Of a stretch of 64,000 nucleotides of DNA, positions 1,921-45,394 are shown piece after piece. The stretch is from a virus. The stretch's first letter is position 1; each line of letters opens with the position of its first letter. The stretch lies in UHGV virus genome UHGV-2031204. One strand, written 5' to 3'. The notes beneath the pieces were generated by a model. The model was not told the DNA's origin and did not search any database. It saw only the letters and a list, made by a program, of their open reading frames with translations. The translations under genes were made by a program, and so were the position numbers.

Positions 1921-4900
1921 ATGCTGCTCATTAAACAGTTTAACCAACGCTTCTCGGTGCGTAAAACCGATGAGTTTGGTAATCCGAGGATTATCCCGCT
2001 CGAGAAGCTACAGATACCGCGAGGTTCTGTACTCCATGTCATTGATCTCGACCAGGTGGTGTTAGCGCCGCCTGCAACACTCGAGATTATTCAACCGTTA
2101 GAAAAACCTGCACAGGTTCGTCACCACTTTAAATTACCGGAAGACGGTATTAGCGGACATCCGCGCAACAAACCTGTTCAGGGGCAAGAACGTGCTATCT
2201 TTGCCTACCACCGTGCAAACCGCCCGATGCGTCGTCTTACCTCAGACGAACTGGTTCGCAAAGACTTAAAAGTTCTCCTGATCGAGAACTACACGCCGAT
2301 GCTATCGCACTACTACTATCCTGATACCCAGTTAGCCTGGTACGATAGATTGCGTAACATCCAACTGCTGATGATTAACCAGTTCAAATACAACACGCAA
2401 GAATACATGCGTCAGAACTATTTCGTTATTGAACTGGGTTCGGCATTACCTTCGTTCCAGAAGTTTCAAACAACTTATAACGACCGTGTTAAGAGCAAGA
2501 TTGAGAAGTTCCAGGACTTCAACTTGCTGTGGTTATTAGAACTGTTTGCTTGGGCTTATGGAAAACAATCCGATTCCTTATTCGCGGGAATGGATTTAAC
2601 TCAGCTGTCACGAATGAACTTTATCTTCACCCACAACACGGGCTTTACGTCCATGAACATGGGTGTTGTAGAGAAAATGCGTAAGTCCTCCGGCGGTCGT
2701 TTAAGTGACGACCAAATGGCCAGGATGTTCTACCGTACGCTGGTGCGTGTAATGACACAAGCACCGTCTAACGCGTACGAAGCGGAATTCCTAACGCCTG
2801 AAGGTGACGAACGTGTTTTCCTTAAAGACGTCGAAGAAGAAACCGTTGATGTTGTCGATGATGACGACGTTGTTAATGACGCTGTGGTCGAATCCGATAA
2901 CACCTTCGATGAAAAAGAAGACGTCGTTATTGAAGAACCGAAGGAAGACGTCAAACCGACGACAATTGTTGTCGAGAAAGTCATTCCGCACGACGAGATT
3001 ATTAAACAGGAAGCACAACGCTTAGCTGAAGCGGGCCGCTTAAGTTCTAAAGCTTATCAGTTCCTGTCAGAATCGTCTAAACGTTTCGTTCAGCTGCCTA
3101 ACCCGTATAACCCGAAAGAAACCTACGGGGAAGCGCTTACTGTTCACGAGAAAGACGTCGTCGTTAAAGCCGAGCCGAAAAAGGTTCAGCGACTTGTTAC
3201 CGACGAAGGGTGGGCCGAGAACGTCACCGACCAGATGGTGAAACAATACAACCAGACCATGATGACCAAAGACGTGCTGGCGGCGGTCGCCAGTTCACAA
3301 CGTTTGGGTCTGGCGATTCACAATCACACGGTGGAAAAAGAAGTTTCTGTTACAGGGACTATCGAGCACCACACTTTACGTGTTCAACCAGTCGGTGGTG
3401 AGCCGACAACCGTTCGCTTCTCTATCCCAGGCTTGACCGAGGACGGTACTTGGGTAGCTAATGGTGTCGAATACACCATGCGCCGACAACGTGTGGACTT
3501 ACCGATTCGTAAGGTTGCACCGGATACTGTCGCACTGACTACCGCATACGGTAAAAACTTTGTCCGTCGTAGTGATAAGGTCGCAAACGACTACGGTCGT
3601 TGGTTAACCAACGCGATTATCACACGCGCTGTTGACCCGACAAACACCGAAGTCACCGATGCACGTTTAGCAAATGTGTTCGATCCTACGCAACATCTGC
3701 CTCGTCAGTATACGGAGATTGCACGTCGTATTGCCAGCTTTAATGCGAATGGCTATATGTGGAACTTCGACTACAAAGAAGCCGTTAACTTCTTTAATGA
3801 CGAGCAACTCAGAGACGCCGATGCTGCCAAACTTTTGCCAGTGGCGAAACGTCCGCGTAGTGAAACAATCCTGGCAATGGATGACAAATCCATGCTTTAC
3901 GGTGTGAACGGAAACAAAGTTGAGCCGGTGGGAACTATCGCAGAGGTACTGGGCTTTAATAACCAGAAAGTGCCTCGCGAAATGACCGAGCTGTCTTTGA
4001 TGGGTAAATCTTTGTCGCTTGGTTTTATCTTCTCGTTCTACCTTGGACTCCAGGGAATGTTGAAACATTTCGGTATCCAGTACGAGTTGGTTCCCGCAGG
4101 GCAGCGTGTTGATAAGAATGCCTACGACAGTATTATTCGGCTACAAGACTGTAAACTTTTAGTTACATGCGATAACGATCAGCAGAAGATGATTCTGCAT
4201 GGTTTGGATCGCTATCTCAAACACCTGGTTGCTTATACCGAATCAGAAGCAGACCGCGAAGACATTTACCTGAACTTATTACGTGATGCAGATGGCCTAA
4301 CACCACGGTACATCAACGAGCTGAAACAGATGCGGTCCGCGTTTGTTGACGACATGCACGCACGTATCCTCAGGAAAATGGGTGAACCGGAAACCTTTAT
4401 TGGCTTGTTGGAACGTTCTAACGAACTGTTACAAACTGACCACTCTTTACCAGAGATTAACGGCGATGAAATGATGTTCTTAGGCAATCAGAGGATTGCC
4501 TACCACATCTATACTGCGATGGTCAGAGCGATGCGTAACTACAATAACGCACCGGGCAGTAACCGTAAGTTCGAACTGACGCAAGACATGGTTTGGGGTG
4601 CAATTAACTCCGACCCGTCGGTACTTTTGGCACCAGGCGCTAACCCTATCCAGTCAATTAAAGAAAAAGACGTTATTACGATGGGGGGTACAGGTGGCCG
4701 TAATCGTAAAACGATGGTCTACCACACGCGTGAATTCCAACCCAGTGATATCGGGATAGTCTCGGGTAACACCGTAGATAACGGTGACGTAGGTATTACA
4801 GCTTTCGTCACCAATAACCCACGTTTTGACACCGTTGACGGTACTACATTTAAACGTGAAGAGAAACCCCCGAAACCAAGCGATACCCTTTCGTTTATTG

Positions 4901-25983: not shown

Positions 25984-27108
25984 ATGAGAAATTACTTACG
26001 TAAACCCGTTTGGCACAGAATGCTGCGCGAAGGTACCATCGACCGAAATCAAAACGTCAAAATGTGGGTTCTTCCACACGGCGTAATTTGTGATTTAGTT
26101 CGTGTCGGTGGTATGGACATTTTGCGCAACGGTACCTACGATGCGGTCAACTCGTTTCTTGCACGCGAATTGGCAGAGGCAGGTTTACATGGCGAAATTC
26201 TGTTTTACACCACACGCGTTATTCCACAAACCCTGTCGAAATGGTTAACGTACTGGTTGTCTGGTGATCCTGACGCATCGGACCCAGAACTCAACTCAGT
26301 AACAATTACAACGTTGGGACAATACCCAACGAAACCGCTACCATTTCAGGTAAACGTAGTAGAGCCGTTAATTGTAAAAGCAGGTGACGTCTTCGACACG
26401 ATTAAAGCTAAATCCAGAAACCAAGCGGTTTCACAGTTCCTCGTAGAAACTGAAAATGAGGTGTTTCGCCTGGAACCCGTCCGTAAAACGGATGCCACGT
26501 TACTGGCAGTCACCGACTACGGTGTGGTGTGCCGTTCTACAGAAGGTCACACTTTCCTGTGTACAATTTTGTCTCGTCGTATACAAGCCCAGTTAGCGCA
26601 CTACAAACTGAGTTTGAACGACATCATCGGTACTACGTTACGCATCGAATACACGATGTACACCGATGGCAACAGGTTGTGTAACTACAAGTCACCTATC
26701 GCGTATCGAGCACTGGCGTTAGACAGTCTCGGTGATTGGGTTTCAACGACATACGATGGGCCTTCACCGTTTAAAACAATCCCGACACAACGGCCTGCGT
26801 TGCTGACGGTTACACGCTGCAATCGTGCTGAAATCTACGAGGAAAATGGGGTGATTTATGGCTTAGAACGTGAGACAGGATTAACGCTGTTTCGTTTCCG
26901 CCGAGGCCCAGAATACGGGCGTTACGCTGCCGTTTTCGAACGGGAAGGGGAACAAGAAACCTGGCTATTCGATTCCGATTTCTCGGTTGACGTTATCGAC
27001 CCTGAAGGGTTTATTGCTTCGGTCGGAAATCAGGTGTTCTACGCCACCGGTTACAGTTTGGTCGATGTGAAACTGTACTATCCGTCAAAAGAACTGACGA
27101 CTCTGTAA
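25984..27108 (+). CDS. hypothetical protein (early-promoter-motif gene)
   Basis: 374-aa ORF with CCTAAAGGAG leader and upstream promoter-like motif; strong terminator follows. Confidence 0.7.
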   Translation: MRNYLRKPVWHRMLREGTIDRNQNVKMWVLPHGVICDLVRVGGMDILRNGTYDAVNSFLARELAEAGLHGEILFYTTRVIPQTLSKWLTYWLSGDPDASDPELNSVTITTLGQYPTKPLPFQVNVVEPLIVKAGDVFDTIKAKSRNQAVSQFLVETENEVFRLEPVRKTDATLLAVTDYGVVCRSTEGHTFLCTILSRRIQAQLAHYKLSLNDIIGTTLRIEYTMYTDGNRLCNYKSPIAYRALALDSLGDWVSTTYDGPSPFKTIPTQRPALLTVTRCNRAEIYEENGVIYGLERETGLTLFRFRRGPEYGRYAAVFEREGEQETWLFDSDFSVDVIDPEGFIASVGNQVFYATGYSLVDVKLYYPSKELTTL

Positions 27109-27118
27109 AAAATATTCT

Positions 27119-27156
27119 GGGGAGACTTCGGTCTCCCCCGTTTTTATTTTTTTTTG
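27119..27156 (+). terminator. intrinsic terminator
   Basis: GGGGAGACTTCGGTCTCCCC hairpin with TTCG loop followed by long T-run. Confidence 0.8.
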
Positions 27157-27659
27157 CCCAAAATCAAAAAACGCGATGAGAGCGATTCTAACGCATTTTT
27201 CTTCCAGGTGGTACGTTCGTACCCCTTACCCACGTTTATCTCTCCAGAGAGCTTCCTACGAAGAATTTGAGGGTGTTTTGGTTGTGGGTTTTGAATTTAT
27301 TTTCACTCAACGCCATGAAACCGCGATTTTGTCGTTCGTGCTGTCACGCCAACCCCTATCCCTGGGTGGGACGAAAACCCACCCCATCGTAAAACGCTCT
27401 AAAACGCTTTTTGACGCAAAAATCTTCTCAAGGGGTACACTTGGGTACCCGAACCCCGTTTAATTCGTTACAGCTCGATTGAGAGCGTCTGAGGGGCATT
27501 CCCCTCGACCAGTTCCACCCCACCCTCGGGTCGGCGAACCGGCCGCCGCGACGATCAAAAAAACATTCACGCTTCGCGTACTAGCGGATCAGCTGGATTG
27601 ATCAACTTACTGAATCTTCACACACTGAAGATTCAGGTTGAGTAGTTCTCTAGCTTTGG

Positions 27660-27940
27660 TTTTTTGATCTTTTAAAATTTTTAATACTCTTCGAGAGACT
27701 TAGTGTCTCTCGAATCGATCTTAAATTTTTAACTCTTTCAAAAATCTGATCTCAAGATCTCTTCCTTATACGCGTGTGCGCACGCACACGTATAGTATAA
27801 TATATTTATTTATAAATATATTATTCCTTTAGGATCAAAATAATAATACCTTTAGGTATTATTTAATTATATATTTTAATATATATTATATATAAATATA
27901 TATAAAACGCGCGCGATCCTTATTATGAGATCTGATCTCG
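27660..27940. other. candidate replication origin or DNA-unwinding element: AT-rich core with palindromes, flanked by a GATC cluster
   Basis: Eight GATC sites between 27666 and 27937; ~115-bp almost pure A/T core with palindrome AATAATACCTTTAGGTATTATT; no credible ORF. Confidence 0.3.
27767..27794. repeat. alternating pyrimidine-purine tract (Z-DNA-prone)
   Basis: TATACGCGTGTGCGCACGCACACGTATA at the edge of the AT-rich core; a second CGCGCGCG tract at 27908..27915. Confidence 0.8.
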
Positions 27941-28802
27941 CTATGACCCCCCTGAGGGGGTAGGGATCGGTGAGCGGTATTTTCCAGAAAAAACCGAAAA
28001 TCGTACCCGGGGTAATTCGCCAGGGTAAAATCCCCACCTGGGGGATCGGGTAGGGGTCTACCCCGAACACCTGACCGAGGGGTGTAAAACCCATTCCCCT
28101 TTTTCGAACGTTAAAACCCTATGGTATGTTCGGAGGATTTGCGTGGGATGATTTACAAATCCAACCACGAAGATTTTTCGGAGTTCAGGAGTTTACTGCT
28201 CACAGCTCAAACACGATTTCTGTCTGCGAAGATTCAGCAGAGCTCGAAGCCCCCTGACCGGATGTTGGTTTGGGGGTTGTTTTTTCGAGTGCATGGAATT
28301 TATTTCGCCGTGTACTGGGAAAAACAAAACGTTCAGCCTAACACTGGAGTTTGTTTTACTATGGGGTTTGAAAATCGATTTGCCAATCGAACTTACCCCG
28401 AGGGATTTTTGGAATCCCCAGAGTTCAGGTGCTCGGTACCGTTTCCCCGACTTACGAGTGTTGGGGAGCCCGCGCTATCAGTGACGCGTGGACCACATGA
28501 GAAAATCCGAGGGAACCGTGGCAGCCTCTGGGAGCGACGTTGGCGAAAGGTCCGTAGAACTTACCTGCGGGCAGCCGACGGTGGGATACGCTCCCAGAGG
28601 TGCGGCCAGAATGCGAATTACGACGTTGCGTCGAATGACCCTGCTCCAGGTAGCGCTGGCAGTGTGATGTCCTCTAGCTTGACGGCTCGCAAAGACGAGA
28701 GGGGTGCGTACTCCCGTTGAGAAACGCCGGTACGCAGCTGAATTATTTTTTTTTACAGCGTTTCCTGTTGGTGTGACACAAACCACGGCAGGAGATTTTA
28801 AT
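27940..28802 (+). other. hairpin-dense non-coding segment (candidate structured RNA or array of protein-binding palindromes)
   Basis: Stacked inverted repeats: CCCCCTGAGGGGG, AAAACAAA/TTTGTTTT, GGGATTTTTGGAATCCC, and a perfect 12-bp repeat CCTCTGGGAGCG/CGCTCCCAGAGG (28525..28536 and 28589..28600); only SD-less, Arg-rich ORFs. Confidence 0.3.
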
Positions 28803-29165
28803 ATGGATTCCAAAAACACCACTAACGTGGAATTGGATGTTCAGTACAGGCTCGATGAGTTGGCAGCTCTGTTAAAAGCCCCGGAGGACTGGGGATGCAC
28901 GGAGCCAGCGTTACTTGATTTGATCAAGAGCGTGCGGATTTACCAACCCGTCGAGATTTACATCACGGTAGTTGTGGAAGTTCACGATGGTTATTGCGTG
29001 GAACACATCCCTAGCCCTATTGCGCATTATCCGAGCTATCGAGAGTGTCTCCTGGTAGCCGTTCGTGAAGGCTTGGCTCGTGCGATTCGTGAACATGTTA
29101 CGCGATGCACGAACCCGATGGCAGCTGTTGATCAGGTGGACAGCAATGAGTTAGGAATTCTGTGA
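28803..29165 (+). CDS. hypothetical protein
   Basis: ATG 28803 after GGAG at 28791; stop overlaps the HslV-like start; ORF track 5' extension lacks an RBS. Confidence 0.6.
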   Translation: MDSKNTTNVELDVQYRLDELAALLKAPEDWGCTEPALLDLIKSVRIYQPVEIYITVVVEVHDGYCVEHIPSPIAHYPSYRECLLVAVREGLARAIREHVTRCTNPMAAVDQVDSNELGIL

Positions 29166-29665
29166 TGACCACGATTGTTTTTGACGGAAAGACGTTAGCT
29201 TGCGACGGTCAAGTCACCGTGGAAGAGCGTAGTGCTGCCACGCAATACCGTAAGATCCACACGCCGCCCGAGGGTACGACGTGGAATCTTTTGGGTGAAG
29301 ACGTAAAAGCGTTTGGTTTGGCAGGCGATGTCGCCGCATTGCAATCTGTGCGTCAAGAACTCACGCTTGAACGTTTCGGTGGTATCGAACGGGGTGGGGT
29401 TCGTTTTGAAACGACGTATCCCGAACAGATTGATTTTATCGTACTTGCTGTTTTGACAGACGGGCGCGTTATCGACGCCTCGAAATGCAAAGACAACAAA
29501 TACGCCAGTTACGTGTTTGTAGAGCCACCGTATGCGATAGGCTCAGGTGCACACTATGCCCTGGGTGCGTTAGGCGCAGGCGTTGACGCCCCCACTGCGG
29601 TGGAAGTGGCGAAACGTTACGACCTGTACAGCGGTGGACAAACGCAATCACTTAAGCTGTTTTGA
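29165..29665 (+). CDS. hslV: HslV-like Ntn-hydrolase peptidase (proteasome beta-type)
   Basis: MTTIVFDGKTLACDGQVT matches HslV [22 protein letters not shown] including the Thr nucleophile after Met; AFGLAGDVAA resembles AGFAGGTADA; YAIGSGAHYALGALGAG resembles IAIGSGGPYAQAAARAL; ~166 aa. Confidence 0.75.
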   Translation: MTTIVFDGKTLACDGQVTVEERSAATQYRKIHTPPEGTTWNLLGEDVKAFGLAGDVAALQSVRQELTLERFGGIERGGVRFETTYPEQIDFIVLAVLTDGRVIDASKCKDNKYASYVFVEPPYAIGSGAHYALGALGAGVDAPTAVEVAKRYDLYSGGQTQSLKLF

Positions 29666-29672
29666 TGTATTA

Positions 29673-29748
29673 GGGGGTGTAGCACAATTGGTAGTGCAGC
29701 GGTCTCCAAAACCGAAGGTTGGGAGTTCGAAACTTCCCGCCCCCGCCA
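29673..29748 (+). tRNA. tRNA-Trp (anticodon CCA)
   Basis: 76-nt cloverleaf read by hand: acceptor GGGGGTG/CGCCCCC, D-arm GCAC-AATTGGTA-GTGC, anticodon loop CTCCAAA, T-arm GGGAG-TTCGAAA-CTTCC, discriminator G, encoded CCA; very similar to E. coli tRNA-Trp. Confidence 0.85.
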
Positions 29749-29812
29749 GATTTTAGCCACTAAGTTCATTCTCAACACAGAAAACGATATGTGTTATCTG
29801 TGGGAGAAAATT

Positions 29813-30049
29813 ATGAACTTGTATCTAGTAGAAAGAACCGACAGCGTTGGTTGGGATGAATGTTCCGCAATGATTGTTGCAGCCCCTACGGAAGAAGCTG
29901 CATGTGCAATTCTTCCTTGCGAGTCTGGCTGGACTGGTGAGTTGTTATTGGATGGAGATGTGGAAGAGGTTACCCTCAAAGCCACACTCCTCGGTACGAC
30001 ACACTACCCAGAGGGGGAGGTTCTTTACACTGATTACCTATACGGCTAA
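29813..30049 (+). CDS. hypothetical small protein
   Basis: ATG 29813 after GGGAG; 78 aa; followed by hairpin GTGGGCTTCGGCCCAC. Confidence 0.5.
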   Translation: MNLYLVERTDSVGWDECSAMIVAAPTEEAACAILPCESGWTGELLLDGDVEEVTLKATLLGTTHYPEGEVLYTDYLYG

Positions 30050-30219
30050 AACAGTGGGCTTCGGCCCACTAACCTAATTAGAACAATCGAACAAGAGTCA
30101 CAAACTCGTCAGCCTTCAACTGAGGGTCGGTTGTTCTGATAACTTCTGCTCTTGCTCACGGGTAGAAAGCTCCTTAAAAACGTGTAAACACCTACCGATT
30201 AAGTTCGGACTTACGTTAG

Positions 30220-30285
30220 GGTCGTGAGACCCTGGTGGTTAGACCACCTAAACGGTTGTACGGTGGGAGGATAAAACCTCCCACC
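30220..30285 (+). other. three consecutive perfect hairpins in a non-coding leader
   Basis: GGGTCGTGAGACCC, GGTGGTTAGACCACC and GGTGGGAGGATAAAACCTCCCACC in tandem. Confidence 0.4.
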
Positions 30286-30588
30286 TGCACCCACCAAGAA
30301 TTTAATTATTGGGTATTTCCCCTAAGTGTAACGTGAATACCCTGTAATGTGAATTGAGAGTTACGTGTTAACTCGACGGTACTGGTCGATGATCACCTGT
30401 AAACCTTCATCGTCCCATGTCATGCTGTGTTTGACCAGTACCGAACTTTGTCGCTATGCCTGGTGACGTGGCTACACACCGAGGCTGGGGCTCGACACCC
30501 GTTAGCGACACCCTTTTTGCGTTATTGTCAGTATTCTGAAGCTGTGTTCAGTGACAGTAGCGTTTTTTATTCGCGTTGGCGTTTGTAC

Positions 30589-30630
30589 CATTGCTGCCCT
30601 TGCTGTCATTGCTGCCACTGCCTGCTGCGC
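30589..30630 (+). repeat. short tandem repeat of a TTGCTGYCM nonamer (about four units)
   Basis: CATTGCTGCCCTTGCTGTCATTGCTGCCACTGCCTGCTGCGCC. Confidence 0.7.
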
Positions 30631-30724
30631 CTCAACAGACGTTCAACGCGTCCCATTAACCCACACGTCGGGGTATAGCGACGTACAACAGAACGAGTAG
30701 TAGTAACAGAACGAGGTAACAGAA

Positions 30725-31372
30725 ATGCTTACAGTAAAACGCATTATTAACGGTGACCGTGTCATCACTGTGCACGAACGTGTACGTTTAGGTGACAAAA
30801 TGTCCCGTGTTTACAAAGAAGCACTTAAAGTCGCCAATGGCGAAGATAATGAATTGTGTTTTGATAACGCGATTGATTTGCCGAGAAAACCGAAATCGGT
30901 GGGTTATACAGCTTTAACTGATATGTCCGTAGAGGAACAGAAAAGCACCTTAGCCAACCTGCATCCGTTTTTGCACAATGTGTCAGATTGGACCGTTGTC
31001 ATTGGTGGTCGACCTATTCCAGAGGATGTACCACGTGTGGTGATCGTTAACCCGCGTATGCCGTCCTTCGAAGAAAAGAATTCGCCAGTCGACGAAATTT
31101 ATATCCCTGGCAATAATTTCTATTGCCGGTTTTGTGGCTTTACACAGCGTGAAATGACGTATGTGATGCCACCTCAAGAAATCCAATTAGTCCGCGAGTT
31201 GATTAACGAAGATGGTGATACCTTCTATCAGAATCAGCTCCGTAGCGGTAAGCACTCAGTTGACGAGGCTATCGGCGTTTTACTCGTCGATGATGCTTAC
31301 GAATTTTTCTATCCAGGGGATGTGGTTTACATCATGAACAATGAAGGTAAAACCATTGATACCCTGCGATAA
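30725..31372 (+). CDS. hypothetical protein
   Basis: 215-aa ORF; terminator at 31478..31516. Confidence 0.65.
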   Translation: MLTVKRIINGDRVITVHERVRLGDKMSRVYKEALKVANGEDNELCFDNAIDLPRKPKSVGYTALTDMSVEEQKSTLANLHPFLHNVSDWTVVIGGRPIPEDVPRVVIVNPRMPSFEEKNSPVDEIYIPGNNFYCRFCGFTQREMTYVMPPQEIQLVRELINEDGDTFYQNQLRSGKHSVDEAIGVLLVDDAYEFFYPGDVVYIMNNEGKTIDTLR

Positions 31373-31477
31373 CCAGTTTAGCTCCGCCGAAAGCTAAAAG
31401 CCCACCCTTCGAGAACGCCCATTCTCATGCCCTGAAGGGTTTTAATCCTGTAGTTTCATTGCCGATGACAGGGAACG

Positions 31478-31516
31478 TACCTACCTCCGAAAGGGGGTAG
31501 GTATATTCTTTTTTAT
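31478..31516 (+). terminator. intrinsic terminator
   Basis: TACCTACCTCCGAAAGGGGGTAGGTA hairpin followed by T-run. Confidence 0.75.
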
Positions 31517-31520
31517 CGCA

Positions 31521-31550
31521 AATTTTTAGAGATAGATGTTACCTGTATGA
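31521..31550 (+). promoter_or_regulatory. conserved promoter-like element, variant copy
   Basis: AAATTTTTAGAGATAGATGTTACCTGTATGA upstream of 31597. Confidence 0.4.
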
Positions 31551-31596
31551 ACGTTGGTACTAAGCGTTTTAATTCGACTTTTTAGGAGCAGGTAAA

Positions 31597-32037
31597 ATGA
31601 AAATAGATGCCATTGAAGGTTTGATGTGTTTGGGGTATACGTTTGATGAAGCGGCTGTTATTCGACCGTTTTTGTCACGCCGTTTCTCAGTGTGGCAAGC
31701 ACTACCCAAAGATGGACCGACTGGTAAGTTAGTAGAACGATTTGTTGAGCGGGTGCTGAATCGTAATCGGAATGAATTTAGTTTACGGTGGGCGGATGGG
31801 AAAGAACGCAAACACTTAAACCCAAGCCCGTGGTGTATGTTGGTGTTTCGTTGTGATGGCGAAGAATTTACGTTCCCAGCTATTGAATTTGTAAGGCGGT
31901 ACGGGTTAGCAATTTACACAGAGTTAGGAACAAACGGCGCAGGTCGAGTATTAGTTTACGACCGGGGCGAGTTACGGATTAAAACGAAACAGTTGGCGGA
32001 GCTTTACCACGAGCGTCACGCCGTAGAATTAGTATAA
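31597..32037 (+). CDS. hypothetical protein
   Basis: 146-aa ORF with AGGAGCAGG RBS and a variant promoter-like motif upstream. Confidence 0.65.
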   Translation: MKIDAIEGLMCLGYTFDEAAVIRPFLSRRFSVWQALPKDGPTGKLVERFVERVLNRNRNEFSLRWADGKERKHLNPSPWCMLVFRCDGEEFTFPAIEFVRRYGLAIYTELGTNGAGRVLVYDRGELRIKTKQLAELYHERHAVELV

Positions 32038-32053
32038 CTATAGAGGGTGATTA

Positions 32054-32078
32054 GGGGACTATACGTCCCCTTTTTTTT
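32054..32078 (+). terminator. intrinsic terminator
   Basis: GGGGACTATACGTCCCC hairpin followed by T8. Confidence 0.8.
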
Positions 32079-32119
32079 GATTTTTACGGTACTGGTATGT
32101 ATTTATAGGAGGTGGTACC

Positions 32120-32524
32120 GTGAACGTCGAAGAACCACATTACGATTTTTATAGTTTGTTAGAGAACAACATCTTTCCAGAACGGATTTTAGTTCGCAGT
32201 CGTTTAGACGATTTGATTCTGTATACGCTCTTGCCTATATTGGCAAATCACCCTGAGTTTAAAGCATGGCTTAGTGAAATGAAATCCATTGACGAACCTG
32301 CTTTGCTACTAAACGATGAGGTTCCGGTAATACGCACGAATTACCACCTTACGAGAACGGAGGTCCATGCGATTACCCCGAAACTAGTTAATTCGTTTAT
32401 GTGTGAATTAGCCAACGGGATAAAACGTCAACAGATACCGTTAGTTGAAGCTTTCTCTGTGTTATTGGATGCGGTATATAGTTTCCAGTACCAGGCAACC
32501 AATAAGCTGTCAAATATCCATTGA
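32120..32524 (+). CDS. hypothetical protein
   Basis: GTG start after AGGAGGTGG RBS; 134 aa. Confidence 0.6.
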   Translation: MNVEEPHYDFYSLLENNIFPERILVRSRLDDLILYTLLPILANHPEFKAWLSEMKSIDEPALLLNDEVPVIRTNYHLTRTEVHAITPKLVNSFMCELANGIKRQQIPLVEAFSVLLDAVYSFQYQATNKLSNIH

Positions 32525-32543
32525 GTTATAGTGGGAGAGAAAA

Positions 32544-32924
32544 ATGAATACTACACTGCGTCCACTGGACGTGATTTTGGTGCATCCGGACGCATTGAGT
32601 AAAATTAAGATTCGGAGCCAGCTCGACGAGAAGCTGCTTTCGTCTCTGGAATGGGGTTTTGTGATGCACCCCGGTGAGTATAAAAACACACGATACAATG
32701 ATGTTCCAGAAGGTAGTGTGATTGATTGGTCTGTGCCGGAAGGGTTTGAAGATGTCGTTCAGTACATGGCTGAAATGACGGTGCCCTACACGTTACCGAT
32801 TGCGGGACCTGCGGAGAATATCATTAGCCTACGCAGATTGGTGAATGCACAACCTGAAAACATCCGTAATGGGGTGGCGTGGACGACAGGAACGGCATGT
32901 CATTTGAAGAATATGTTGCAGTGA
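32544..32924 (+). CDS. hypothetical protein
   Basis: 126-aa ORF with GGGAGAGAAAA RBS; terminator follows. Confidence 0.65.
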   Translation: MNTTLRPLDVILVHPDALSKIKIRSQLDEKLLSSLEWGFVMHPGEYKNTRYNDVPEGSVIDWSVPEGFEDVVQYMAEMTVPYTLPIAGPAENIISLRRLVNAQPENIRNGVAWTTGTACHLKNMLQ

Positions 32925-41811: not shown

Positions 41812-41854
41812 ACCAACACTACAATTGTATTAAACCTTATAAGGATTAAGTAAA

Positions 41855-43702
41855 ATGGCTAAAGAGTTTATTGACAATCAAAACGACGTTGTGACTGGTG
41901 CTGCTGGTTCCGCTGCAGATCCAATTCCGTCTTTCGGTGGCGCGGGAGCTGCTACTGTGGATAATACCAATGCGGCCAACGCTTTTGGTGGGATGTCTAA
42001 AAACATCTCTACTTTCGATAAAGCTTTCGGATACATGTCTTTCGTGTCCACTGCTTCTCAGTTCACCAGCCTGATTGAGAAGATGGCGGAGAAGAATACA
42101 TACCTGCGTAACTTCCGTTGGGGTGTTATTGACGGCATCAACTCTGAAATGGGTTCTGCTGCATACGTGGCTGGTCCGTCTGGCGATAACCATAACGAAT
42201 GGCTCTACGGCATCCTGTTCTTTGAACATGGCCAGTCCATCCGTTTCTACGAAATCAACGGTAAAGAAAACTACTACACCCTGGCGCAGCTGTTCAGCCA
42301 AGAAGGTGTGATGAACAACATCACTAACCAGATTGCAACTCAGCACAACCTGCCAAGCGTACAGTTCATGGTAATGAACTGCGTACCGGAACTGGGTAAA
42401 ACCATGAACGAAGAATGGGCTAACCAGCTCATGGGCCAGATTGCACTGGGTATCTTCGGTCGTCATTCCGGCTACCTGGGCTACCTGAAAATGACCCGTT
42501 CTGATCGCTTCACCGCGCAAGTCAGCGTAGTTGAAGAAGGTTCTGTAACTGATGTTAACGGTTCTGCACAACGTGCTGACCTGATGGTTGTGGTTGACCA
42601 TACTCGCACCGGCAACAACGATAATAACCCGACGCTGTTCTCTTCTGAACGCCTCCAGAATTATCCGAGCGTTGCAGGTGTTGGTTACATCAACCTCCGC
42701 CATAAAGGTAAACCTCAGACCCTGACTAACGGTACTCAGGACCTGCGTCAGCTGGAAGCCGAAGTGGTTGTTTCCCTGATGGATTCTCAGTCCTCTGGGG
42801 CAATGGCACCTATCGAGCGTCAGCTGATTGAACTGGCCGCGTTCGCACAAATCGCCACTATCGGTGGCTGGCGTGAACGTTTCATGCAGTCGCTGAACAA
42901 AACCGATCGCCGCTTCTCCCGCGTTCTGGAGTATGTAGAATGGGGCAGCGAAAAACCTGACCTGAGCAAAATCGACGGTAACCGTGAAGTTATCGAGAAA
43001 TGCCTGGACACCTTCGCTAACCCGACTGCGGCCCTGGTGGTGAACCATCGTGCAGGTAACGGTATCGGTGGTCTGTCTACTCTCCTGAGCGAAATCGGGA
43101 TGGGTAACACCAACGCACTGTACACCCTGTTCAATATCCTGGATAACATGGCCAGCAACGGCGCGACTAAGTTCAGCACTCGCTTCAAAGCACTGCTGGG
43201 CAATGTCACCAACTTCGAGTGCAAACACGTTGTTATTGCCGGTTGCCCGACCATCTCTGGCCAGTATTTCAGCAACAGCCAGAAACGCAGCTTCCAGGAT
43301 ATGGACTTGGTTTCCGCTCTGACTAAAGTGGGTGATAACCAACGCGATGCGATCGACTACATCAGTGCACAGTCCTACTCTCACCGCTATCTGAATGCGC
43401 GTGACCAGCGTCTGTACCTGCTGAAAATGGCTGCGTCCATGTTCGGTAGCAAACAGCCGCAGGTAACGGGTGAAGCGTCTGACCTGGCGATCAATCCGCT
43501 GTTTGGTAAAGCACTGGTGGAATACATTACTGAAAACTGCAACTTCCAGGTGAATGGTGTTACCGCAGCGAACAGCCTCACTCACTCTGTGTTTGTTAAC
43601 ACGGGTAATGAGAACTTCGCGCTGTCTGGTAGCGGTCCTAACGCATTTGGTAGCGATTTCGGTATGTCCTTCGCTGCAACTGACTGGCGTCCGACTTTCT
43701 AA
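41855..43702 (+). CDS. highly expressed protein; candidate chimallin-like phage-nucleus shell protein (alternative: another abundant major protein)
   Basis: 615 aa; markedly host-optimal codon usage (CTG, CGT, GGT, AAC, TTC, ATC) unlike neighbours; two promoter-like motifs upstream; strongest terminator in window downstream; Gly/Ala-rich flexible N- and C-termini; no alignment possible. Confidence 0.35.
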   Translation: MAKEFIDNQNDVVTGAAGSAADPIPSFGGAGAATVDNTNAANAFGGMSKNISTFDKAFGYMSFVSTASQFTSLIEKMAEKNTYLRNFRWGVIDGINSEMGSAAYVAGPSGDNHNEWLYGILFFEHGQSIRFYEINGKENYYTLAQLFSQEGVMNNITNQIATQHNLPSVQFMVMNCVPELGKTMNEEWANQLMGQIALGIFGRHSGYLGYLKMTRSDRFTAQVSVVEEGSVTDVNGSAQRADLMVVVDHTRTGNNDNNPTLFSSERLQNYPSVAGVGYINLRHKGKPQTLTNGTQDLRQLEAEVVVSLMDSQSSGAMAPIERQLIELAAFAQIATIGGWRERFMQSLNKTDRRFSRVLEYVEWGSEKPDLSKIDGNREVIEKCLDTFANPTAALVVNHRAGNGIGGLSTLLSEIGMGNTNALYTLFNILDNMASNGATKFSTRFKALLGNVTNFECKHVVIAGCPTISGQYFSNSQKRSFQDMDLVSALTKVGDNQRDAIDYISAQSYSHRYLNARDQRLYLLKMAASMFGSKQPQVTGEASDLAINPLFGKALVEYITENCNFQVNGVTAANSLTHSVFVNTGNENFALSGSGPNAFGSDFGMSFAATDWRPTF

Positions 43703-43731
43703 TAAGTTGGTAAGTAGTAAGCAGTAGTTGA

Positions 43732-43774
43732 GGGACAGGGGAAAACCCCCTGTCCCTTCCCTCTCTTTTTTTGT
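43732..43774 (+). terminator. strong intrinsic terminator after the codon-optimised 615-aa gene
   Basis: GGGACAGGGGGAAAACCCCCTGTCCC hairpin followed by TTCCCTCTCTTTTTTTG. Confidence 0.85.
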
Positions 43775-43786
43775 TGAGGATTCGGC

Positions 43787-45394
43787 GTGGAACATAAACT
43801 AGAATATTACGGGATTTCGGGGCGACTAATTAGTCACGACAAGATGTTACGTGACTGTATACAAGAAGCGGAGGAAAAAGGCTACAAACCACCGATTATT
43901 ATCAATGACGTTGCTGCAACGATGGATACCATCGAAGCGTCGGAGATGATTAACCAAATACTCCAAAACCGAATCGTTGATGAAACACTCAACTCGGCTC
44001 CTATTTGCAGTCTGACCTGCGAATCACCTATTACCCATCGTTATAATCTTGGGCTACGTTGCCCACATTGCGGACATGTTGTTTCTGAACATCGGATTAC
44101 GTCCGATGTCTGGTTACGCGCCCCCGATGAGATGGGTAACTTTATCAATCCACGTTTTTGGTCTCTCTTTAATGCCTTCTTTGGCTCTAAGCTGAAAAAA
44201 TTTAATCGTAACAAAGTGACGGTAGAGCGCGGGTCTGATTTACTGCTGTGGCTAATCGATCCGTACTACCATCCAGAAAAGGACGAAGGAACACGTGCTC
44301 GCGTGGTGAAAAGAATACTCGGCGAACATGGCTTCGAACGGGGAATTCGAAACTTTATCGACCACCATCGAACCGTCTTTAATATCCTTACGTCCCCGGA
44401 AGCTTGGAAGGAGATTTATCCGCCAACGAAAAATAACCGTTATGAGAGTGAGCGCGTACGCTTAGAATGGCGTGAGTTCTTTCAGGAACAATCGTTCTCA
44501 TTCTTTCCAAGACACCTTCCGATTATTTCATCAAAACTGATCGTTACGGAGGAACGTCGACAAGGTATTTTTATCGATCCGGTTTATACCAGCGCTATCG
44601 ACGCAGTAAAAAATGTGGCGTTGTTGTACACGAATGCACGTCGTATCGAACCACGATTTATTATTCGTCGCGCAATCAAAGCGAATCGACAGCTTGCGTA
44701 TTTCTATATTGACCATCGTCAGGAAGTGATGGAAGGTAAACCTGGGTTCTATCGGGCAAAACTCGGGTCAACACACGTACCGTGGGGCGGACGTGTGACT
44801 ATCTCTCCTATCTCTGAACCTCACGATGCGTTGAAAGTTATTGCGCCTTGGCGTTGGTTGGTTCCGTTGGCGAGTGTTCACATCGAGAACAAGTTAGGTC
44901 GTCGTGATTATACACCTCGACAATGTGAGCGCATTATTGCATTTGCGGCAATGCAGTATGTACCGCTGGTACATGAAATTATTAATGAGTTGATTAAAGA
45001 ATCCCCCGGCGGATTCGGCTTAATGTTGGAAGTTCTGCGTAACCCAACATTGGTTCAACTTTCTATTCAGACATTGTTCATCTCAGCGGTACTGACAGAT
45101 GTAACACAATGTTCTCTGCGTATTTCTGATCGTGTCATCAAAGCGCCTAACGCTGATTTCGATGGCGACCAGTTACAATGCAGATTGGCAATCGACCAGA
45201 TTGAAATGGAACTGGGCATGGCTTATCGCCCAGACAACGGGTTTATGTCAAGCACGAATGTGGACGAGGTTTCGAGTTGTATGATTCTCCATAACGAGAA
45301 TATCAGCAACATAAACAGTTTCTTCCAGGATACTGAAGAGGACTTGGAAGCCGGTATCGCGCTTGACTCTGAATTATTAAAATTGGCGGGGTAA
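43787..45394 (+). CDS. multisubunit RNA polymerase beta-prime subunit, N-terminal module
   Basis: Canonical APNADFDGDQLQ catalytic motif near the C-terminus; Cys cluster CSLTCE...CPHCGH (zinc-binding-like); GTG start. Confidence 0.85.
   Translation: MEHKLEYYGISGRLISHDKMLRDCIQEAEEKGYKPPIIINDVAATMDTIEASEMINQILQNRIVDETLNSAPICSLTCESPITHRYNLGLRCPHCGHVVSEHRITSDVWLRAPDEMGNFINPRFWSLFNAFFGSKLKKFNRNKVTVERGSDLLLWLIDPYYHPEKDEGTRARVVKRILGEHGFERGIRNFIDHHRTVFNILTSPEAWKEIYPPTKNNRYESERVRLEWREFFQEQSFSFFPRHLPIISSKLIVTEERRQGIFIDPVYTSAIDAVKNVALLYTNARRIEPRFIIRRAIKANRQLAYFYIDHRQEVMEGKPGFYRAKLGSTHVPWGGRVTISPISEPHDALKVIAPWRWLVPLASVHIENKLGRRDYTPRQCERIIAFAAMQYVPLVHEIINELIKESPGGFGLMLEVLRNPTLVQLSIQTLFISAVLTDVTQCSLRISDRVIKAPNADFDGDQLQCRLAIDQIEMELGMAYRPDNGFMSSTNVDEVSSCMILHNENISNINSFFQDTEEDLEAGIALDSELLKLAG

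Follow-up and report, generated by a model that had tools for sequence, protein, structure and literature searches.

What does a phage gain from a transfer RNA (tRNA) for tryptophan, an amino acid with one codon, and how did it come by the gene? The question is raised by a stretch of 64,000 nucleotides of the virus genome UHGV-2031204 (hereafter the window), in which a tRNA-Trp gene with the anticodon CCA lies at positions 29673-29748. An earlier reading of the letters, made without database searches (the sequence-only reading), had described this tRNA as complete and host-like, and had proposed that it either counters host anticodon nucleases or marks a site of gene acquisition. Here we find that 29673-29748 is a bona fide, functional-looking gene for an elongator tRNA-Trp(CCA). 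We favour, with a probability of about 0.55, the reading that its product is a working tRNA that would insure or boost tryptophan decoding, with a benefit that would be accessory.

The largest open reading frames (ORFs) of the window match the families of split RNA polymerase beta subunits, DNA polymerase, large terminase, tail sheath and helicase. By these protein matches the window belongs to a phiKZ-like jumbo phage, a distant relative of Salmonella phage SPN3US. Blastn picked up short regions with 70-73% identity in SPN3US (Seoulvirus) and in Erwinia jumbo phages; among 50,697 phage records, megablast found no match to the locus. The phage of the window is known from human-gut metagenome contigs only: positions 26165-32665 are 100% identical to contigs of ENA ERZ28664859 and ERZ914886, and a 171-kb contig of JGI 3300045988 begins with a sequence 100% identical to positions 28638-32665. 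The tRNA-Trp is the same in all three of these independent assemblies. From the relatives we infer an enterobacterial host.

The tRNA-Trp gene is complete and conserved

The gene and the short sequence that follows it are as follows.

29673-29748, plus strand: tRNA-Trp(CCA), 76 nt, with encoded CCA and G73; ARAGORN, Rfam 62.1 bits, covariation in 15 of 21 pairs, identical copy in three assemblies
29749-29760, plus strand: 3′ trailer GATTTTAGCCAC; flanks of orthologues, alignment A2

The completeness described by the sequence-only reading (76 nt, an encoded CCA end, a canonical T-loop) was confirmed. ARAGORN called the sole tRNA of the 64 kb at exactly these coordinates, as tRNA-Trp(cca), and the Rfam model RF00005 matched 29673-29745 over its full length (model positions 1-71) at 62.1 bits (E 4.8e-11), the gathering score being 29. 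The sequence, GGGGGTGTAGCACAATTGGTAGTGCAGCGGTCTCCAAAACCGAAGGTTGGGAGTTCGAAACTTCCCGCCCCCGCCA, forms a standard cloverleaf with stems of 7/4/5/5 pairs, in which G27.A43 is the single non-standard pair. The variable loop has 5 nt, the T-loop reads UUCGAAA, the discriminator is G73, and A37 accompanies the anticodon CCA.

Nine jumbo-phage tRNA-Trp orthologues were aligned with E. coli trpT (alignment A3). The nucleotides U8, A14, G18, G19, A21, U33, G53, T54, T55, C56, A58 and C61, all present in the window gene, are invariant in this alignment, as are C34, C35, A36, G73 and the CCA end, and the stems vary with compensation. The cloverleaf is paired in 98.6% of cells, with compensatory double changes in 15 of the 21 pairs; none of 500 shuffles matched this covariation, and controls in which the structure was slid along the alignment paired at 38-51%. 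An invariant anticodon, G73, CCA end and tertiary nucleotides, together with compensated stems, argue for selection for a working tRNA-Trp and not for a pseudogene, a reading that was considered and rejected. C34, C35, A36 and G73 are the major identity elements for E. coli tryptophanyl-tRNA synthetase (TrpRS), and all of them are present in the window tRNA. Taken together, these results establish its identity as a tRNA-Trp. Directly 3′ of the CCA end, most orthologues across genera carry the motif ATTTAGCCA(A/G)C, which may be a processing or promoter signal.

The E. coli trpT product and the window tRNA are identical at 62 of 76 positions, and both have 76 nt, the anticodon CCA, G73 and a CCA end. 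The anticodon arm (positions 28-42, with the loop CUCCAAA) is the same in the two molecules, as are the D-loop, the 5′ strand of the T-stem (GGGAG) and the A15-U48 pair. The 14 substitutions fall at positions 1, 6, 11, 12, 23, 27, 43, 44, 45, 59, 60, 63, 64 and 72. The window gene thus has G1-C72 where trpT has A1-U72 and the G27.A43 mismatch where trpT has a C-G pair, with other differences in the D-stem pairs 11-24 and 12-23, at positions 44-45, in the T-loop (59-60) and in the T-stem (63-64). All complete E. coli genomes (5426/5426) match the window gene at 82.7-84%, in each case at an annotated tRNA-Trp, with a median of 1 trpT copy per genome. E. coli trpT lies in an rRNA operon beside tRNA-Asp, whereas the window gene lies in a phage operon. 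The claimed resemblance to the host-type tRNA is borne out by these figures, for a host predicted from the relatives. The window tRNA is slightly closer still to that of SPN3US, with which it shares 65 of 76 positions (11 differ).

Conserved position and an ancestral tRNA array

Four features surround the tRNA-Trp gene in what appears to be one operon.

28803-29165, plus strand: 120-aa ORF with which the putative operon begins; from the ORF list, and called as a gene in the metagenome contigs
29165-29665, plus strand: HslV-like peptidase gene; phrog_1040 'peptidase HslV family', E 2.3e-35
29813-30049, plus strand: 78-aa ORF; phrog_5444 (unknown function), E 5.7e-22, conserved partner of the tRNA-Trp
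30054-30069, plus strand: hairpin GTGGGC-TTCG-GCCCAC after the 78-aa ORF; 91% identical to SPN3US 2152-2185

The order HslV-like gene, tRNA-Trp, small phrog_5444 ORF and hairpin is kept in SPN3US, SPLA3, SPAsTU and Proteus phage 7, and also in the Erwinia Machinavirus phages pEa_SNUABM_9 and pEa_SNUABM_8. The tRNA-Trp likewise lies downstream of the HslV-like gene in jumbo-phage contigs of IMG/VR (L009, L017, L019 (phiEaH2), L020 and L022). Positions 29673-30082 are collinear with SPN3US 1771-2185 (71% by blastn), and the tRNA-Trp genes of Seoulvirus, Machinavirus, Erskinevirus and Wellingtonvirus (for example NC_027402.1 ACQ60_gt001) have the same anticodon as the window gene. In the records of the SPN3US group the tRNA-Trp is already annotated, between the HslV-family gene and the phrog_5444-type ORF with its hairpin; the orthologue is known already, and the window adds one more. 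The sequence-only reading had placed the gene 8 nt after the HslV-like gene. Its first base is indeed the eighth past the last base of the TGA stop codon, which ends at 29665, but the spacer itself is 7 nt, compared with about 93 nt in SPN3US.

The position after the HslV-like gene, common to SPN3US, SPAsTU, phiEaH2 and Machinavirus, argues that the window tRNA-Trp is ancestral to the clade and no recent acquisition. The orthologues share 49-74 of 76 positions among themselves. A recent capture from a host was rejected: the 3′ 32-mer of the gene had 0 matches in 185,579 bacterial species genomes, and its central 37-mer had 0 matches in IMG/VR, so that neither search pointed to a donor or a host. 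A 20-mer, GGTCTCCAAAACCGAAGGTT, is common to the tRNA-Trp genes of the window, SPN3US and pEa9, and was found in 62 IMG/VR contigs, mostly unrelated.

Among the relatives, the number of additional tRNAs downstream of the tRNA-Trp ranges from none to about 12. The Machinavirus tRNA-Trp opens a complete array, with about 12 tRNAs after it (Trp, Cys, Tyr, Gln, Phe, Ile, Leu, Ile2, Glu, Asp, Ser, Met, Asn), and the window gene corresponds to the first of these genes. In the SPFM phages, the tRNA-Trp was described as the single tRNA of the genomes (PMC6614189). Unlike the arrays of T4, T5 and Machinavirus, the window keeps Trp alone, and blastn detected no array relics beyond it in the window. SPN3US itself carries two decayed tRNAs in tandem, one without an anticodon loop at 2929-2998 (37.1 bits) and one with a CAU anticodon at 3001-3072 (30.6 bits). 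By these comparisons, the window tRNA-Trp is the leading gene of an ancestral tRNA array, and the one retained most persistently; several lineages show decay of this array. The SPN3US relics also touch existing annotations: a RefSeq 'tRNA-OTHER' at 2933-3002 overlaps the relic without an anticodon loop, and the CAU relic overlaps a minus-strand 'hypothetical protein' that is probably spurious.

Presence and absence among sibling phages

The nearest relatives of the window are three IMG/VR contigs from sample 3300045988 (L003-L005), whose HslV-like proteins are 96-98% identical to that of the window. An independent 13.7-kb contig, JAEWFE010000254.1 (L174), which was found in a metagenome-assembled genome, belongs to the same sibling group. 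The DNA of the siblings is 95.3% identical to the window over 29165-29671 and 97.5-99.5% identical from 30077 on. Between these flanks the alleles differ.

29672-30076, unstranded: 405-bp segment with the tRNA-Trp, the 78-aa ORF and the hairpin; absent from the siblings, which have 82 bp there instead
L003 4513-4589, L004 1810-1886, L005 1675-1751 and L174 4791-4867: AAU tRNA-like gene; ARAGORN

The junctions are defined by blastn (window 29165-29671 = L003 4004-4510; window 30077-30891 = L003 4593-5407). The 82 bp of the siblings hold a 77-nt tRNA-like gene with the anticodon AAU (ARAGORN 'Ile', Rfam 40.1 bits), which to our knowledge is no normal bacterial anticodon. This gene encodes no CCA, its discriminator varies (G, A or T), and it contains a U.U mismatch. 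Its identity to the CAU relic of SPN3US and relatives, which those genomes carry on the downstream side of the tRNA-Trp at a distance of about 1.2 kb, is 87-92%, and it appears to derive from a CAU (Ile2/Met-like) tRNA by a change of C34 to A. The simplest reading of the aligned sequences is that the Trp and AAU alleles would be two alternative deletions from an ancestor with both genes.

By this comparison of alleles, the locus is a rearrangement hot spot. The suggestion that the tRNA marks a site of gene acquisition therefore survives in part: the 82-bp swap and the range from 0 to about 12 tRNAs speak for a site of rearrangement, but the tRNA-Trp itself is ancestral, at a position common to the clade. 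The Trp-less allele is present in four independent contigs, and its lineage has diversified and co-occurs with the Trp-bearing one in the same combined metagenome. That near-identical siblings are without the 405-bp segment indicates that the tRNA-Trp cassette is accessory. The 20-mer that the window shares with SPN3US is absent from the three sibling contigs, in which a diverged second copy of tRNA-Trp would escape such a search. The binning of L174 in a 'Bacillota bacterium' genome is probably an artefact and gives no clue to a host.

What the tRNA may do

In the reading that we favour, one transcript would cover the 120-aa ORF, the HslV-like gene, the tRNA and the 78-aa ORF, with no terminator before the hairpin at 30054-30069. 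From this polycistronic RNA, host RNase P would cut the 5′ end and host exonucleases would trim the 3′ end; addition of CCA would be unneeded because CCA is encoded. Charging by host TrpRS is predicted because the anticodon CCA and G73 are intact, and the charged tRNA would decode UGG on host ribosomes. The selective benefit, we infer, would be to insure or boost the capacity for tryptophan decoding, because the host makes its tRNA-Trp from one gene and host expression collapses in infection. It would be non-essential, since the gene is deleted in sibling phages that circulate in similar samples. The premise of the sequence-only reading that the single UGG codon is rarely limiting is doubtful: E. 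coli has one trpT gene per genome.

Several points weigh against this reading. Our literature search found no expression, processing or charging data for any tRNA of the SPN3US group, and no SPN3US transcriptome. TGG makes up 1.22% of the codons of the window (57 greedy ORFs, 18,348 codons) and is rarer than in a 50-kb E. coli sample counted by the same procedure (1.61%; host assumed), so that demand is not elevated. tRNAs are long-lived, and host shut-off alone need not deplete tRNA-Trp. The natural deletion variants show that under certain conditions the tRNA may bring no benefit at all. Codon usage and tRNA count cover 64 kb of a genome of about 170-240 kb, and the host is predicted from relatives.

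The codon figures bear most directly on the general textbook hypothesis for phage tRNAs, which is that the phage uses a codon, here UGG, above the host level and supplies the matching tRNA. A few ORFs of the window are indeed rich in tryptophan (2.6-3.5%), but TGG is not enriched in the window relative to the E. coli sample, and an amino acid with one codon leaves no synonymous bias to correct; compensation of this kind is disfavoured, and we give it a slim chance. It is somewhat less improbable, yet still doubtful, that the gene is all that is left of an array in decay, persisting through inertia or because it provides a signal for RNase P processing or for stabilisation between the messages of the HslV-like gene and the 78-aa ORF, without translational benefit. 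The decaying array of SPN3US with its two relics at 30-37 bits, the loss of the tRNA-Trp in the siblings and its place inside an operon, 7 nt past a stop codon, all fit such a role. However, the window gene scores 62 bits, and the strict conservation of anticodon, G73, CCA and tertiary nucleotides, with compensated stems across genera, points to selection for a chargeable tRNA and not for a hairpin alone. Least credible of all is that the weakened 27-43 pair raises near-cognate reading of UGA, as in the Hirsh suppressor, and so extends phage proteins. Mutations at 27-43 enhance first-position wobble in a tRNA-Trp background, and the window tRNA has the G27.A43 mismatch; TGA ends 14 of 59 ORFs and TAG none, and 127 in-frame sense codons follow the TGA of the HslV-like gene, through the tRNA gene and into the 78-aa ORF. 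Yet no more than 3 of 9 phage orthologues have the 27-43 mismatch, SPN3US and SPAsTU, in which the frames differ, do not retain the in-frame arrangement, and other extensions past TGA are short.

The possibility raised by the sequence-only reading, defence against anticodon nucleases, deserves more weight than these, although it too seems unlikely. Here the phage tRNA would replace or outnumber a host copy destroyed by a tRNase of the host or of a rival element, either as a cleavage-resistant variant or by plain replenishment of the pool. Phage tRNAs are known to save an infection that PARIS, retron or PrrC-type nucleases would otherwise stop (PMC11464382, PMC11555353, PMC10264068), and accessory counter-defence genes typically show such presence or absence between near-identical phages. 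The tRNA-Lys of T5 that acts against PARIS, the tRNA-Tyr of T5 that acts against the retron PtuAB and the mycobacteriophage tRNAs are likewise accessory copies of host tRNAs, variably present. Those counter-defence tRNAs, however, have an altered anticodon stem-loop and a known cognate nuclease (PMC10264068, PMC11464382, PMC11555353). In the documented cases of escape it is the anticodon loop that departs from the host sequence (PMC10264068), whereas the arm 28-42 of the window tRNA is that of the host. At the acceptor end the molecules do differ, with G1-C72 in the phage and A1-U72 in E. coli, and a toxin of contact-dependent growth inhibition (CDI), CdiA-CT(EC869), cleaves E. coli tRNA-Trp between 71 and 72, which its authors attribute to the weak A1-U72 pair and G73 (PMC9071432). 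But CDI toxins target bacteria and are no phage defence, and the 1-72 pair is not fixed in the alignment (four rows have GC, three GU and three AU, with E. coli among the last). The literature search found CdiA-CT(EC869) and mycobacterial VapC toxins as the only nucleases acting on tRNA-Trp, and no Trp-specific nuclease in a phage-defence system, an absence that is no proof. In its known form, counter-defence is not supported for this tRNA by the sequence comparison or by the papers found. Replenishment after damage remains a close rival of the supply supplement that we favour.

The pair of near-identical gut phages with and without the segment amounts to a natural experiment on one phage tRNA. 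The question open to the two alleles is whether a tRNA with a host-identical anticodon arm brings supply insurance, counter-defence or nothing.

The operon and neighbouring genes

The HslV-like gene named by the sequence-only reading was recovered as such: besides the match to phrog_1040, its product begins with MTTI, as in HslV, and has 36-37% amino acid identity to the SPN3US and pEa9 homologues. A search of five neighbouring ORFs, this one included, against Pfam and NCBIfam gave no match. Upstream, the 120-aa ORF had no family match in PHROG, Pfam or NCBIfam; SPAsTU has its equivalent upstream of the HslV gene. Downstream, the 78-aa ORF has syntenic counterparts in SPN3US, pEa9, pEa8 and SPAsTU, and a sequence search of Pfam, NCBIfam and PDB gave no match. 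No terminator-like site was found between the 120-aa ORF, the HslV-like gene, the tRNA-Trp and the 78-aa ORF, which makes co-transcription likely, and the UUCG-capped hairpin at 30054-30069 is the probable end of the transcription unit. A scan for sigma-70 promoters and terminators gave counts no higher than in shuffled sequences and is uninformative, the phage having its own RNA polymerases.

A comparison of neighbouring ORFs with PHROGs, Pfam and NCBIfam turned up no integrase. An integration site (attP/attB) was rejected as an account of the gene, given a complete tRNA inside a conserved operon of lytic-type jumbo phages and no integrase.

The stretch from the stop of the HslV-like gene to the 78/86-aa ORF, 29663-30049, lies in one frame, probably by chance. 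TAA closes 45 of the 59 greedy ORFs of the window, TGA the other 14 and TAG 0; the same method applied to the 50-kb E. coli sample found TAG at 6 of 44. Beyond the operon, 30077-30724 is a second ORF-free stretch (650 nt), 99.5% identical in the sibling L003. Its counterpart in SPN3US spans 1.27 kb and holds the two tRNA relics, and in Machinavirus it consists of genes followed by the tRNA array. Elsewhere, a 649-aa ORF on the minus strand (41846-43795) is locally GC-richer (0.50) and is alone among the ten largest ORFs in having no PHROG match at E 1e-10.

A candidate structured RNA and an origin-like region upstream

No conserved ORF lies in the 1.7 kb that precede the operon (27109-28800), a stretch that aligns collinearly across genera. 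A 199-aa ORF at 28121-28720 is broken in siblings with 87-96% DNA identity, and the records of related phages have a few short 'hypothetical protein' calls over this stretch, which is otherwise unannotated. Three features were delimited here.

28280-28745, plus strand: candidate structured RNA, about 470 nt; covariation in alignments A5, A4 and A7, folding energy z-score -3.76
28705-28742, plus strand: GNRA-capped hairpin that comes after CGGCTCGCAAAGACGAGAGGGG in the 3′ module of the candidate RNA
about 27476-28126, core 27500-27960, unstranded: GATC- and AT-rich origin-like or control region; GATC density and AT core

In the candidate RNA, invariant motifs stand between covarying helices. 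Alignment A5 has 57 consensus pairs, 25 of them compensatory, and in alignment A7 compensatory changes occur in 8 of 31 pairs. The terminal hairpin with its GNRA tetraloop (alignment A4) is paired in 100% of cells, with compensatory changes in 8 of 18 pairs, and 0 of 500 shuffles matched it. Conserved G-U pairs place the candidate RNA on the plus strand. A search of 26900-30300 with Rfam 15 at permissive E-values returned the tRNA alone, and the candidate RNA had no match. The window has a single copy of the invariant motif CGGCTCGnnA(n)AGACGAGAGGGG, and IMG/VR has only 15 contigs with it, eleven of 150-250 kb and four of 12-58 kb. In bacterial genomes a scan for the motif gave 3 matches, two of which are chance matches (about 2 were expected); the third is the phage contig L174. 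In Wellingtonvirus phages (Erwinia phage Kwan, L150, at 1960-2469), a putative HNH endonuclease gene lies just upstream of the conserved 3′ RNA module, in the place that the upstream RNA domain takes in the other phages. This arrangement suggests a homing-endonuclease insertion into the noncoding region.

The giant phage-associated RNAs GOLLD and ROOL typically adjoin tRNA genes (PMC5737381). The candidate RNA resembles them, by analogy, in its tRNA-gene neighbourhood, although no similarity to either was detected. A tentative and rather improbable view, which draws on that analogy, is that the locus is centred on RNA: the clade-specific candidate RNA and the tRNA (or array) would be co-transcribed and functionally coupled, and the former would represent a new class of large RNA in jumbo phages of the nucleus-forming type. 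If true, this would echo the unexplained association of GOLLD and ROOL with phage tRNA genes. The surroundings may outweigh the tRNA in interest. For this phage family, the literature search found no replication origin or regulatory RNAs described.

The densest GATC cluster of the 64 kb lies further upstream, with 13 sites at 27553-28044, 11 of them within 27500-27960. The density reaches 8 per 300 nt, compared with a window mean of 0.93. An AT-rich core (27782-27905) is flanked by alternating CG/CA tracts, covarying hairpins are present, the GC skew turns positive here, and the GATC-bearing blocks are conserved across genera. Positions 27500-27960 look like a replication origin or a region under Dam/SeqA control.

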